A stretch of 39,244 bases of DNA from the UHGV virus genome UHGV-0144129; one strand, given 5' to 3'. The DNA is from a virus. The notes beneath the pieces are model-generated. The model worked only from the letters and a program-made list of their open reading frames with translations. It searched no databases and was not told where the DNA came from. How positions within the stretch are numbered: position 1 is the stretch's first letter; the number at the start of each line of letters is the position of its first letter. Below, piece after piece: positions 13,273 through 34,264 of the stretch. The position numbers were made by a program, and so were the translations under genes.

Positions 13273-13284
13273 GTGACATGTCAC
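13273..13284. repeat. perfect 12-bp palindrome GTGACATGTCAC (family B, copy 1)
   Basis: Exact palindrome; identical copies at 31802-31813 and 34253-34264. Confidence 0.5.
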
Positions 13285-13299
13285 GATAGTTCCGTTTTG

Positions 13300-13555
13300 C
13301 ACATCCCTGTGCCGCCGTTCTGTCAGAAGAACCCTGCCTTGTCGTTGATGTACTCCGCGTGGGTCTGGATATCACGCAGGCACTTGCTCACACCGACGAT
13401 GTAGCAGAACATGGTGGTCAGCTCCGCCGCCGCGCCCGATACATCGTGCCCGTCGTCCTGTAACTGGTTAAGCAGATTCATCAGCAGTGAGTTCTCCGTC
13501 AGGCCGAGAACACCCGACGGCGAATGAATCAGACTGCGGTAGCCGGGCTTCAGCG
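13300..13555. repeat. right arm of the ~255 bp inverted repeat (3' end of ant plus 3' UTR)
   Basis: See the left arm at 12083-12337. Confidence 0.7.
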
Positions 13556-14267
13556 GATAACCATAACATTTTGTCTGTGTTTTAATTGCCTCACGAAGCG
13601 CATCTAACATCTTGACTGCCACTTCATCATTCTCTGATGCAGATCCAGCAGGGAGATGCTCCCCTTCAAGCGGAACCCGAGCAACAAGAGACAACGCTTC
13701 GGCGAATTGATCTTCATCAATTTCTTTGTACGAACAGCCAAAATGAGATTTCAGTGACGACCACATGGTGATCATCGCCTTAGCCTGTTTTTCTTTTGGC
13801 AGAGACTGACCGCGACTCATGACGAGTTGTTTAATGGCTTCCTGCTGTTCAGTGGTTATTTTACCCGGCAACGCCTTTTTAGCTTTGCGTGGGTTAACCA
13901 CATGGCCTTTAGTCCAGTACTCGTAGAGCACATCGTCACACTCTTCCTGATACTGGATTACCTTGTCGCGGATTTCAGGGCGGACTTTGTTAGGGCTGAT
14001 GGTTTGCAACCAGCCAGCAAGTTTGCGAAGTGCCAAACAAATAATCTCACGGCGCTGTTCATCCCCAGGAAGCTGCATTGTGATTTTCACAATGCAGGTT
14101 TTAAACCGCTGCTTCATTTTCGTAAACTGTGAAGCCCAATCCATACCCATGCCTTCAACGATAGGTTTCATTGGGGTGTACGGTTCTCCGTTGTGATTGA
14201 CAACATAAAGTTCTGCGCCGTGGAATGGCACGTTGATAGTAGATACCGCTGTTGCTATACTCGTCAT
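13323..14267 (-). CDS. ant: antirepressor Ant (AntA-type N-domain plus shared C-domain)
   Basis: N-terminus (INVPFHGAELYVVNHNGEPYTPMKPIVEGMGMDW) is AntA-like. Directly downstream of the arc-like gene, as in P22 immI. Confidence 0.7.
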   Translation of the reverse strand: MTSIATAVSTINVPFHGAELYVVNHNGEPYTPMKPIVEGMGMDWASQFTKMKQRFKTCIVKITMQLPGDEQRREIICLALRKLAGWLQTISPNKVRPEIRDKVIQYQEECDDVLYEYWTKGHVVNPRKAKKALPGKITTEQQEAIKQLVMSRGQSLPKEKQAKAMITMWSSLKSHFGCSYKEIDEDQFAEALSLVARVPLEGEHLPAGSASENDEVAVKMLDALREAIKTQTKCYGYPLKPGYRSLIHSPSGVLGLTENSLLMNLLNQLQDDGHDVSGAAAELTTMFCYIVGVSKCLRDIQTHAEYINDKAGFF

Positions 14268-14339
14268 GTCGTTAATTCCTATACGTAGTTTTACGATACT
14301 GAAGCCCTGACGGTCTGGCCACCGTTGGGCTTCGCTGTT

Positions 14340-14507
14340 TTATGCCACGCTATTCTTCTCACCAGTGAGTCCATACACTTTCCTCAGCTGATAGATAATC
14401 TCTGTATTGAACTTTCGGCATTCTTTTTCGCCATTTCTTTCAATAGCTAACTTCACATCGTCCGGAAAACGAACTCGTCGTTGACACATCTCTTTTGCTT
14501 TTTGCAT
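14340..14507 (-). CDS. Arc-like ribbon-helix-helix repressor
   Basis: Start is the internal ATG (MQKAKEM...) with SD AAGGAG 7 nt upstream. The RRVRFPDDVKLAIERNGEK...NTEIIYQLRK region has an RHH beta-strand plus two helices. Sits between the mnt-like gene and ant. Confidence 0.55.
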   Translation of the reverse strand: MQKAKEMCQRRVRFPDDVKLAIERNGEKECRKFNTEIIYQLRKVYGLTGEKNSVA

Positions 14508-14521
14508 TTCATATCTCCTTA

Positions 14522-14536
14522 GCCCCACCGTGGGGC
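14522..14536. promoter_or_regulatory. operator-like palindrome GCCCCAC-C-GTGGGGC at the ant promoter
   Basis: Perfect 7-1-7 palindrome just upstream of the arc SD. Its CCACNGTGG core recalls the P22 mnt operator (from memory). Confidence 0.4.
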
Positions 14537-14542
14537 AAAACA

Positions 14543-31797: not shown

Positions 31798-31801
31798 CAC
31801 C

Positions 31802-31813
31802 GTGACATGTCAC
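31802..31813. repeat. perfect 12-bp palindrome GTGACATGTCAC (family B, copy 2)
   Basis: Immediately after the stop of the 31378-31797 gene, followed by a terminator-like hairpin (aaacagccagc...gctggctttgtttt). Confidence 0.5.
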
Positions 31814-31887
31814 AAACAGCCAGCCGATGAGCTGGCTTTGTTTTATCCTCATCAGAGGATATCAACGACATTATCCCCACCAGCAGA

Positions 31888-33363
31888 TTAAGCATATGGA
31901 TCGTAATCTGTGATGGCCTTGCCTTGCTGGTTCTGCTGCCCGGGAATTCGCAGACGCTTCGACACAGGGAACGCAAACGTCAGCAGTAGCGCATCGCCTT
32001 TACCAGGAGAACGCCCAAGCCGCTCCTTGATATCTTCCTTCGGTTCGATAACGATTTTACCGTCCACTCGAACTTTGTACTCTGCCGCCGACAGGTCGTC
32101 CGCTGTTTCCTGGTCATCCAGCATGCCGCCCAGCCTCAGCCATGTCTTACATGAGTTGAACATCTCCCCGCGCTTGTTGAGCATCTGAGGGTCAGTTGAC
32201 GCACCACCGAACGGAACAAGTTGCCATGTACGACCCCAGCCATCACCGATTGACTTCAGACCGGTTCCGTAACCGAAGTCGATGAACACCGCGTCAGCAT
32301 TGTACTGGTCTTCAAAGTCAGCGATACGCTTCGCCATAATCAGATCGTCGGTGGTCTTGTTACCAGTCCATAGCACCTTACTGTGCAGCCCCTGCCGCAG
32401 GTATATCACCGCGTCATCAACGCCTGAGTATGCCGGGTCAACGCCGATTATCACCGGAGCATGTGCAACCTGCGCAGCGGTGACCACCCGTTTCATTGCC
32501 TCGTCAGTAAGTCCGGTAGGGATAAACTGCAATTCAGATGCATCCGGGAATATGCCGCGCACACGGATTTTAACGAAGTCGCTGTCTTCCCCGTAGTCAT
32601 CAACCCATTTCTGCAACTGCTGTTTGTTAGTGCCTTCCACCGTCCGGCTGTCAATCTGCGCAGTTTTCCAGCGGTGTTTGTATTTGCGGAAACATTCGCG
32701 AAAACGCCCGGTATTACGTGTAGGGTTTCCGAACGCCACCCAGATAATCTCAGTGTCTTCGTCCGTAAGCGCACCCTCAGCAACTTCCCACACCAGATCC
32801 GCAATGTTCGACGCTTCATCGAATACCACGATGATGCGTTTTCGCTCGTTGTGTAGTCCGGCGAATGCCTCAGTGTTGTGCTCAGACCAGGGGATTGCGT
32901 CAGCTCGCCACCGCTTGTCGTGCCCAGGATCATTGCTGTACATCGCGGTAGCGGTACAGGTAAACCAGTCTTTCGTGATAGCAAGGTTCGACCACTTGAT
33001 AATTTCCGGCCAGGTCTTCGTTCGTAGCTGGTTGTCGGTGTTGGCGGTCACCACGACCTTACAATCCTCGCAAGTGGACATGCCCCAGTTGATCAACATT
33101 GAGATGTATGCTGATTTACCAATACCGTGACCCGAAGCACGTGCCAGCATAAGCGGCTGATAGCGCGTCTCGGGATTCTGCAGGTGATCACGTATCTCTC
33201 GGAACGCATCGGCCTGCCACTGACGTGGGCCGGTAGCATGTGCCAGTTCAGTCCCCTCTTCCCCCCACGGGAACGCATAGAGGGCATAGCCAAGCGGATC
33301 GTGAGTGAACCCTGCAATATCCTCGATCAACTGCTCTTCAGGAGATAACGCTGCATCTGTCAC
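31888..33363 (-). CDS. terminase large subunit
   Basis: 491 aa. Walker A-like ARASGHGIGKS, acidic Walker B-like VVFDEASN, nuclease half with IIGVDPAYSG. ATGA overlap with the TerS gene upstream. Confidence 0.75.
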   Translation of the reverse strand: MTDAALSPEEQLIEDIAGFTHDPLGYALYAFPWGEEGTELAHATGPRQWQADAFREIRDHLQNPETRYQPLMLARASGHGIGKSAYISMLINWGMSTCEDCKVVVTANTDNQLRTKTWPEIIKWSNLAITKDWFTCTATAMYSNDPGHDKRWRADAIPWSEHNTEAFAGLHNERKRIIVVFDEASNIADLVWEVAEGALTDEDTEIIWVAFGNPTRNTGRFRECFRKYKHRWKTAQIDSRTVEGTNKQQLQKWVDDYGEDSDFVKIRVRGIFPDASELQFIPTGLTDEAMKRVVTAAQVAHAPVIIGVDPAYSGVDDAVIYLRQGLHSKVLWTGNKTTDDLIMAKRIADFEDQYNADAVFIDFGYGTGLKSIGDGWGRTWQLVPFGGASTDPQMLNKRGEMFNSCKTWLRLGGMLDDQETADDLSAAEYKVRVDGKIVIEPKEDIKERLGRSPGKGDALLLTFAFPVSKRLRIPGQQNQQGKAITDYDPYA

Positions 33364-33965
33364 TGATTGCCATCCTGACGTTCTTTGAGTCGCTTCCTGG
33401 CTGCTGCTATGCGATCAGCAATTGTCACATTCACATTAACATCCAGGCGTTCTTTGAATGCGTTGACGTCGACGTGCTTACCAATCAGTTCGAGGTTCTT
33501 CACCTTGTCAGGCCATTTAATTTTTTTGAGGATTGTCTCTATCGAATCCTCGTTCATGTTCATGATGGTCGATGACAGATCAAAGCCACTAAGCGTAGTG
33601 CGCCAGATTTTCGGCCACTCGCGGATTGGCTTAAGGCTCCCATCGTCGTTGAGGATATCGATCACGTCCATCTGGTCGATCTCCACCAGGCGCATGAGAA
33701 CGTAATCAGCACTGACGCGCATTCGTTTGTTGCGCTCCTCCATCAACTCGGCAATCCGTTTTTGAATGCGTTCATCGCGCATCATGACACTGGCTTTAAC
33801 TGCCGCTGTATTTGGGGAGAATCCTGCGTTAATCGCTGCCTGAGTCTGGTTTTCAGGCGTTTTGATGTATGACTGGCAATAAGCCTCCTGCATTGCTGTG
33901 AGCGGCTTAAATTGCGTTGATTTGCGTTTATAGGTTTTAGGTTCAGCAGGCATCATAACCACCAT
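33360..33965 (-). CDS. terminase small subunit
   Basis: QAAINAGFSPNTAAVKASVMMRDERIQKRIAEL is typical of small-terminase DNA-binding domains. Start is probably the internal ATGATG (33953-33965), not the ORF-track start at 34034. Confidence 0.55.
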   Translation of the reverse strand: MVVMMPAEPKTYKRKSTQFKPLTAMQEAYCQSYIKTPENQTQAAINAGFSPNTAAVKASVMMRDERIQKRIAELMEERNKRMRVSADYVLMRLVEIDQMDVIDILNDDGSLKPIREWPKIWRTTLSGFDLSSTIMNMNEDSIETILKKIKWPDKVKNLELIGKHVDVNAFKERLDVNVNVTIADRIAAARKRLKERQDGNQ

Positions 33966-34030
33966 GGTAATAGTTACCGTTGTGGTAATAGTACCATGCA
34001 AAATAAAGCCGCCATAGTTGGCGGCAGTAT

Positions 34031-34243
34031 TCAAAGTCCATCAAATTCATCGTAAAAACTCTCGTCAAGATACCCTTCCCATTTACCGCGAATGAAAATT
34101 ACATCCTCGCCGCAAGGGTGCTGACTGTCGATAACTATATCCCTCCTGGCGCAACCATACTTATGCATGAGAAATTTAACCTCTTTCGGAAAATTTGCTG
34201 AGTTATCTCTCATATCTTCAAGGTCGTAGCGTATTTTTGGCAT
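34031..34243 (-). CDS. hypothetical protein
   Basis: Likely start at the internal Met (MPKIRYDL...). The first 7 codons of the track ORF are the family B palindrome read as protein. Confidence 0.35.
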   Translation of the reverse strand: MPKIRYDLEDMRDNSANFPKEVKFLMHKYGCARRDIVIDSQHPCGEDVIFIRGKWEGYLDESFYDEFDGL

Positions 34244-34252
34244 AACACCTTC

Positions 34253-34264
34253 GTGACATGTCAC
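34253..34264. repeat. perfect 12-bp palindrome GTGACATGTCAC (family B, copy 3)
   Basis: In the intergenic gap between two minus-strand genes, about 290 bp upstream of the TerS start. Confidence 0.5.

Follow-up and report, generated by a model that had tools for sequence, protein, structure and literature searches.

A conserved 12-bp palindrome at transcription-unit ends of epsilon15-like prophages and its association with the gp49/gp46 protein family

Introduction

Several described systems resemble the element considered here, a perfect 12-bp palindrome, GTGACATGTCAC, that is present in the viral genome UHGV-0144129 (39,244 nt, referred to below over its full length as the window). Megablast and comparison with annotated records identified the window as an epsilon15-like (genus Uetakevirus) prophage of Escherichia coli. 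Its nearest relatives are phiV10, TL-2011b, PAS61, and O157 typing phages 9 and 10, and the conventional forward direction of the phage corresponds to the minus strand of the window. The half-sites of the palindrome are identical to those of matS of the host MatP/matS system, which organises the Ter macrodomain in E. coli and Vibrio. The matS consensus is GTGACRNYGTCAC (PMC6907758), and the centre of the phage motif is one base shorter (2 as compared with 3). The 13-bp matS form GTGAC-RNY-GTCAC occurs 0 times in the window and its relatives, all phage sites having a 2-bp centre.

The operators of Arc and Mnt of P22 (immI region) overlap the promoters that are repressed and occur once, whereas the sites described here are dispersed over 21 kb at the 3' ends of transcription units and are unrelated in sequence. 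In addition, the candidate binding protein, which belongs to the family of epsilon15 gp49 and N15 gp46, is twice as long and has a zinc-type motif. The SopB centromere palindromes of N15 and phiKO2 (phiKO2 annotation) are likewise several scattered copies of one palindrome read by one phage protein. They differ in sequence, in the ParB family membership of the protein and in their partition function, and the GTGAC-N2-GTCAC sites of N15 and phiKO2 lie at other coordinates. Lambda Q with its qut site is similar in that it involves the last early-right gene, directly upstream of the late (packaging) operon, and a product with a cysteine cluster; however, homology is lacking, a separate Q-like gene is present in N15 and in ZF40, and the sites do not lie within a late promoter. 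Boundary or linker sequences of lambdoid and P22-like phages, such as bsq1 and bsq2 of CUS-3, are also short conserved stretches at junctions of exchangeable modules, often beside terminators, but they are longer (100–480 bp in CUS-3), lineage-specific, and without a defined dyad or partner protein.

The palindrome is a real, conserved and apparently undescribed cis-element. The 12-mer was not found in the searched literature, and searches on epsilon15 palindromes, SPC32H and N15 gene 46 gave nothing relevant.

Three copies of the palindrome in the window

A search of the whole window located exact copies of GTGACATGTCAC at 13273–13284, 31802–31813 and 34253–34264 and none elsewhere, which confirms the three copies noticed in a sequence-only reading of the DNA. 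Dinucleotide-preserving shuffles of the window gave an exact copy in 0 of 100 cases. The naive expectation for one 12-mer, put earlier at about 0.002, was reproduced as 39244/4^12 = 0.0023, and GTGACATGTCAC is the only perfect 12-bp palindrome that occurs more than once in the window. Each copy has a pyrimidine before it and a purine after it (Y...R), giving a dyad of 14 bp. Copies 2 and 3 share an extended context, as had been recognised, namely TAACACC-CGTGACATGTCACA and TAACACC-tt-CGTGACATGTCACA. The copies and the features around them are as follows.

13273–13284, no strand: copy 1 (site C), where the virion/ant transcription unit ends
31802–31813, no strand: copy 2 (site B), just past the TerL terminator
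34253–34264, no strand: copy 3 (site A), upstream of TerS
34261–34602, minus: gene for the gp49-family candidate binding protein, the last early-right gene (epsilon15 gp49 / phiV10 gp55 / N15 gp46 family, phrog_536)
13255–13272, minus: intrinsic terminator of the ant/virion unit, directly after copy 1
31818–31837, plus: intrinsic terminator between the moron (plus) and TerL (minus), beside copy 2
34008–34025, minus: intrinsic terminator closing the early-right unit; lies 228 nt past copy 3 and precedes the repressor operator and TerS
34031–34243, minus: 70-aa open reading frame (ORF), phrog_1541, inserted between copy 3 and the terminator
13323–14267, minus: P22-type antirepressor gene ant (Pfam P22_AR_N), upstream of copy 1
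31378–31797, plus: variable moron gene, phrog_4846, ending 4 nt before copy 2 and transcribed together with tRNA-Arg
31888–34034, minus: TerS-TerL operon, bracketed by copies 3 and 2

In epsilon15-like phages, the motif lies at transcription-unit ends beside terminators. Copy 1 is 38 nt past the ant stop and abuts the terminator stem 13272→13255. It had been placed after the ant terminator, but in the direction of transcription it precedes that terminator, being located between the ant stop and the stem. A second, convergent unit ends ~50 bp beyond the ant/virion terminator. Copy 2 lies between the stop of the convergent tRNA-linked moron and the terminator shared by the moron and TerL, 4 nt from each. 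Copy 3, described earlier as intergenic, is not purely so, as its bases 34261–34263 are the TGA stop of the 113-aa gp49-family gene; the 70-aa ORF begins 9 nt beyond it. Terminators adjoin copies 1 and 2, and a terminator comes after copy 3.

A near-copy of the palindrome is present in the small gene that follows the portal gene, with the sequence GTGACATGGCAC in relatives (L003, 5306; L001, 16873; L004, 18193) and GCGCCATGTCAC in the window (28715–28726). Either a site that has decayed or a coincidence of the coding sequence is the probable explanation.

Conservation in the genus Uetakevirus

The 12-mer occupies three syntenic places in Uetakeviruses of E. coli, Salmonella and Klebsiella, with flanks that have diverged or carry different genes. 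Exact syntenic sites number three of three in epsilon15 and SPN1S, two of three in Klebsiella phage BUCT711, and two or three of three in TL-2011b, phiV10, PAS61 and typing phage 9; site A of phiV10 has one mismatch and is split across the record ends. Site C is exact and syntenic in all of these phages (TL-2011b, phiV10, PAS61, typing phage 9, epsilon15, SPN1S and BUCT711). Among 80 close relatives from IMG/VR, site A was exact in 75 and had one mismatch in 4, and site B was exact in 55, had one mismatch in 8, and was lost or replaced in ~13. The adjacent non-coding bases vary between genera, and the 12-mer is constant.

The earlier proposal that all three copies lie at boundaries between modules is borne out by these comparisons, since on one side of each copy the flanks carry different genes in close relatives and the palindrome is kept. 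Site B is abutted by at least six unrelated genes, each of which stops ~4 nt away. Depending on the relative, the sequence after site A is the 70-aa ORF, a LexA-box cassette or a remnant of 8 codons, and p21, gp18 or ant lies ahead of site C. Conserved sequence between non-homologous genes, the mark of a module boundary, is thus found at sites A, B and C, but this does not explain the copies in conserved genes elsewhere (see below).

The 70-aa ORF is present in about one quarter of the close relatives, and the others retain only its first and last codons, ATGCATGATGAATTTGATGGGTTTTGA (11512–11545 in L001), as a clean deletion remnant. A degenerate fourth copy of the palindrome, located where the lysis unit ends, overlaps the TGA stop codon of Rz and reads GTGACATGTCAT in SPN1S (26722) and GTGACATGGCAT in epsilon15 (26618); no counterpart of it was found in the window within 2 mismatches.

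At all three sites the palindrome is transcribed sequence just upstream of a terminator, and it is transcribed in other lineages too, as would be expected of an RNA element, that is, a short hairpin, or a sequence bound by protein, at the 3' end of the message that affects stability, processing or termination. However, the hairpin has only −1.2 kcal/mol (z = 0), no better than shuffles, and its stem bases are invariant and never covary; the terminator stems beside the sites do show compensatory changes in relatives (seen at 31818–31837). The Y/R constraint on the flanks follows the dyad, as it would in duplex DNA, the N15 sites have a non-palindromic centre with a sense-strand orientation that is not kept, and no Rfam match was found at the sites. 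An RNA element is therefore very improbable. The palindrome was also rejected as an intrinsic terminator in itself, the terminators being separate adjacent hairpins.

The motif in other phages

A profile of the gp49 family was used to scan one genome per species, which gave 66 loci and 1.23 Mb of sequence around the family genes. The loci came from Citrobacter, Klebsiella, Pantoea, Erwinia, Xenorhabdus, Providencia, Serratia, Rahnella and Yersinia, with protein identities from 80% down to 39%. GTGAC-N2-GTCAC occurred 85 times in this sequence, as compared with 0–3 times for each of the spacings 0, 1 and 3–7 and the everted form. Variation is confined to the centre (AT 66, GC 6, AC 4, CT 3, GG 3, GT 2, AG 1), the half-sites being invariant, and five of the six GC centres lie over the stop of Yersinia family genes. 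The base outside the half-site, which was not part of the search pattern, is a pyrimidine in 96% of half-sites, and hence the full motif is Y-GTGAC-N2-GTCAC-R, 14 bp. At least one copy is present in 61 of the 66 loci, and in 42 it lies at or near the stop of the gene. In many unrelated IMG/VR contexts the motif immediately precedes a terminator.

Invariant half-sites with a free centre and symmetric flanks are, as a sequence pattern, the signature of a dimeric DNA-binding protein. Operators of ribbon-helix-helix (RHH) proteins are short dyads or repeats with invariant half-sites, and the motif has this form. Chance, or passive inheritance of neutral sequence, would fit the small copy number per genome, but it is contradicted by the shuffles (0 of 100), by the contrast of 85 occurrences with 0–3 at other spacings, by conservation across genera with diverged flanks and by the presence of the motif in unrelated phage types, and can be practically dismissed.

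Some copies are intragenic. Those in the gene for an early-left 100-aa protein and in cII-like genes (L100, 3663–3986; L103, 1821–2126; L158, 7249–7701) always read xGT-GAC-ATG-TCA-C (C/R-D-M-S-H/Q). In Yersinia P2-like prophages and several IMG/VR contigs (L148–L152; L159, 8468–8520; L182, L216, L236, L263), the main site is accompanied, at a distance of 10–30 nt, by additional single half-sites (GTGACG, CGTCAC) or by another full site, which suggests arrays with room for more than one dimer. One distant family member (L165, 1323–1400) has its stop followed by GCGTGACCGG, 28 nt and CCGGTCACGC, i.e. by matching half-sites that are far apart.

The positions of the sites bear on the possibility that the palindrome is a recombination element, a short linker or hotspot (possibly cut by a phage or host nuclease) for exchange of modules and morons that is conserved for that and not for transcription. 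Mosaic junctions coincide with the sites: at least six non-homologous morons stop ~4 nt from site B, site A exists in three states (remnant, 70-aa ORF and LexA cassette), and different genes lie upstream of site C. Moreover, the gene and site appear as a cassette in unrelated phage backbones, these phages encode recombinases of the RecE/RecT type, and the CUS-3 record annotates 'boundary sequences' around ant. On the other hand, 12 bases are short for homologous exchange, junctions at gene ends are expected of any viable recombinant, and the motif is not present in the CUS-3 boundary sequences. Sites also occur inside conserved coding sequence (repA of N15 and phiKO2, cII-like genes), where there is no module junction. 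In the partner protein no nuclease or recombinase domain was detected, and the earlier suggestion of a site for a nuclease or recombinase is thus unsupported. A recombination element is considered unlikely.

Several other identities were tried and rejected. The annotated epsilon15 repressor operator, ATTACC-N5-GGTAAT, differs in sequence, and its copies in the window are at other coordinates. The consensus for CRP/FNR sites is TGTGA-N6-TCACA, with a TGA-N6-TCA core spacing; the core spacing of the motif is TGA-N4-TCA. Neither the sequence nor the spacing fits a LexA site. The 12-bp SlmA-binding sequence GTGAGTACTCAC, in contrast to these, is a tentative lead: 8 of 12 bases are common to it and the palindrome (GTGA....TCAC), and the two differ at positions 5 and 8, both of them constant in the phage motif. 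An integron attC-like cassette site, an idea that came from the morons ending at a fixed distance, was excluded as the flanks are unlike RYYYAAC/GTTRRRY cores. Finally, the motif is present in headful (epsilon15-like) as well as in cos (N15, P2-like) phages, and a pac or cos site was rejected on that ground.

Co-occurrence with a gene of the gp49/gp46 family

In the samples of genomes and phage records that were cross-compared, the motif associates exclusively with a gene of the gp49/gp46 family. When all six-frame ORF segments were considered, this family was the sole protein common to at least four of five otherwise unrelated motif-bearing phages. The family includes N15 gene 46, and N15 has three GTGAC-YR-GTCAC sites, located at the gene 46 stop, inside repA, and upstream of the isrK/C4 transcript; phiKO2 has three sites syntenic with these. 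Both the gene and the motif are absent from PY54, a related telomere phage. Three exact copies are present in Pectobacterium phage ZF40. A Yersinia P2-like phage has one site over the stop of the gene and nearby half-sites, and Vibrio phage K303, the protein of which is 31% identical, has three sites, one of them directly upstream of TerS. In a metagenomic family member (35% identity), the gene stop lies inside the motif. No copy was found in P2, lambda or P22. Of 120 IMG/VR fragments picked solely for the 12-mer followed by AA, 37 carry the gene within the fragment. The family was found in 154 of 50,697 phage records, with hosts in Vibrio, Escherichia, Salmonella, Klebsiella, Yersinia, Aeromonas, Enterobacter and Pectobacterium.

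The 12-bp motif was absent from 150 kb of E. coli K-12, where ~11.5 copies would be expected at the phage density, so that a similar density in the host genome, which would have refuted the earlier proposal, was not observed in this sample. The sample from the Ter region included two true 13-bp matS sites as a positive control.

These data bear on the alternative that a host protein binds the sites, with MatP as the leading candidate, or else another nucleoid or division factor of Enterobacterales/Vibrionales that reads GTGA..TCAC dyads. The phage would then position or organise its own DNA, and the gp49-family gene would co-occur as a modulator of that interaction. The match of the half-sites to matS fits this alternative, as does the host range of the family, from Vibrio to Pectobacterium in the above list, which coincides with the taxa that have MatP. 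However, the spacer is always 2 and never 3, the K-12 Ter sample has true 13-bp matS and no 12-bp sites, and PY54, P2, lambda and P22 infect MatP-bearing hosts and yet lack the motif, the presence of which tracks the phage gene and not the host. Binding by a host protein is therefore improbable.

The pairing of protein and site, by which the gp49/gp46-family protein binds the motif, is judged probable from this comparative evidence. It connects an uncharacterised family, which has no Pfam entry and is annotated as 'transcriptional regulator' or 'hypothetical', with a precise 14-bp DNA motif, and it spans epsilon15-like, N15-like, P2-like, ZF40-like and Vibrio temperate phages, including the O157 typing phages and TL-2011b, a phage from an enterohaemorrhagic E. 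coli O103:H25 outbreak strain.

Properties of the partner protein

The partner protein belongs to phrog_536, labelled 'transcriptional regulator', and gave no Pfam or NCBIfam assignment above threshold. The family comprises 182 clusters at 50% identity among 1.8 billion representatives. Residues R9, R14, E55, L60, C80, C83, C92, G96 and C100 are invariant throughout the family, and the protein has a basic N-terminus, a putative RHH-like core, a long helix and a C-x2-C...C...C motif. RHH proteins of the MetJ/Arc/CopG class have a beta-alpha-alpha fold and form dimers by way of the N-terminal strand. A first AlphaFold2 model built on a shallow alignment had a predicted local distance difference test score (pLDDT) of 62, and the Foldseek search made with it was meaningless. 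With a deeper alignment the pLDDT was 79.8, and the model shows an extended segment, two helices, the second of which is long, and the cysteine motif. The best structural match of this model was MatP. Foldseek gave nothing significant with it. Profile searches against PDB sequences gave no match, and sequence homology to MatP was not found. P22 NinX, considered as a homologue on account of the annotation under a match, was ruled out by tblastn.

The system is not classed as MatP/matS because sequence homology was not found and because the motif follows the phage gene rather than the host. Why the phage motif copies the half-sites of host matS is a question that the pairing raises. One answer would be that the gp49/gp46 family is a phage-borne counterpart of MatP, an RHH protein that reads matS-like half-sites at a spacing unused by the host. 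It might either fold the phage chromosome or the plasmid prophage by bridging the approximately three sites, or compete or interfere with host MatP, MukBEF or the divisome in lytic growth, and the operon-boundary positions of the sites would then be secondary. This is regarded as a long shot.

Possible role at transcription-unit boundaries

The explanation to which the data incline, with some reserve, is that the motif is an operator of the gp49/gp46-family protein that acts at operon boundaries. The protein would act as a probable dimer, each subunit reading one Y-GTGAC half-site and leaving the two central bases free. Its gene is the last of the early-right operon and ends within what would be a site for its own product. 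The three sites of epsilon15-like phages lie at 3' unit boundaries, beside intrinsic terminators and at convergent junctions, and the bound protein could serve there as a boundary element, a roadblock or a termination helper against read-through into the next unit. Early-right transcription would thereby be kept from the late operon or from the LexA-controlled antirepressor cassette, and the moron or ant units would be kept from the packaging and virion operons on the antisense side.

A boundary or roadblock role is suggested because the sites are in transcribed DNA beside terminators and at convergent junctions, because a palindrome functions in both directions, and because in other lineages the sites lie shortly into early operons (repA, cII-like, early-left), where a roadblock would stop early transcription. 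As a mechanism it is nevertheless rather doubtful.

Several points weigh against the operator at operon boundaries. The positions of the sites vary by lineage, so that a common mechanism is not evident: N15 has sites inside repA and ~65 bp upstream of the isrK/C4 antirepressor promoter, ZF40 and prophages of Xenorhabdus and Serratia have them inside cII-like and early-left genes, and relatives from Klebsiella and Citrobacter have a site 6–7 nt from a −35 element. Given the distances from the −35 element and from the N15 transcript, the protein may instead control promoters directly. The motif is missing within 10 kb in 5 of the 66 gene-bearing loci. The losses of site B and the single mismatches imply that no single site is indispensable. 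Furthermore, if the early-right operon is repressed, there would be no protein in the lysogen, and insulation would be limited to lytic growth.

The sequence-only reading had offered binding of a late-gene regulator as one possibility. The part of this proposal that concerns a regulator is favoured by the comparative evidence, which supplies a specific candidate gene. Control of late genes is conjectural; in other lineages the motif lies inside early genes or upstream of antirepressor promoters. For annotation, the motif is usable as a marker of transcription-unit and mosaic boundaries in these prophages.

Neighbouring genes and elements

After copy 3, the order on the minus strand is the 70-aa ORF, the terminator 34025→34008, dyads like the repressor operator, and TerS. 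The called TerS ORF (33360–34034, with a TTG start at 34034) includes this terminator and the operator dyads; the true start is probably the ATG near 33953, as in the TL-2011b annotation. Copies of the epsilon15-type operator ATTACC-N5-GGTAAT are present at 11277–11293, 11370–11386, 33955–33989 and 38294–38372, among others. One is perfect and several have 1 mismatch, and they lie upstream of isrK, upstream of TerS and in the immunity region.

The ant gene is missing from the corresponding position in phiV10 and epsilon15. A 258-bp inverted repeat (96% complementary; 12080–12337 and 13299–13556) is formed by the 3' ends of two antirepressor-like genes (11657–12313, plus; 13323–14267, minus) and brackets a 961-bp segment with the gene at 12543–13178, its terminator and palindrome copy 1. 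In phiV10, the corresponding antirepressor 3' end is in the opposite orientation, right after the terminator, which suggests inversion or exchange through the repeat.

Rfam matches at 11422–11498, 11523–11607 and 14269–14336 correspond to isrK and C4 antisense RNA (P1/N15-type antirepressor control) and to sar RNA (P22-type). The prophage therefore carries two antirepressor modules of different type that converge on copy 1. A matching isrK-C4 pair is present in N15, with a motif copy ~61 bp upstream (position 28550).

A near-perfect LexA box, TACTGTATAAATATACAGTT, lies at 10212–10231, between the tailspike gene and the next plus-strand ORF. Its probable target is a small antirepressor induced by the SOS response, as in phages of the SPC32H type. 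A hairpin with a 14-bp stem and a T tract (31223–31258) directly follows tRNA-Arg(TCT) (31103–31179), within the reverse-oriented tRNA-moron unit.

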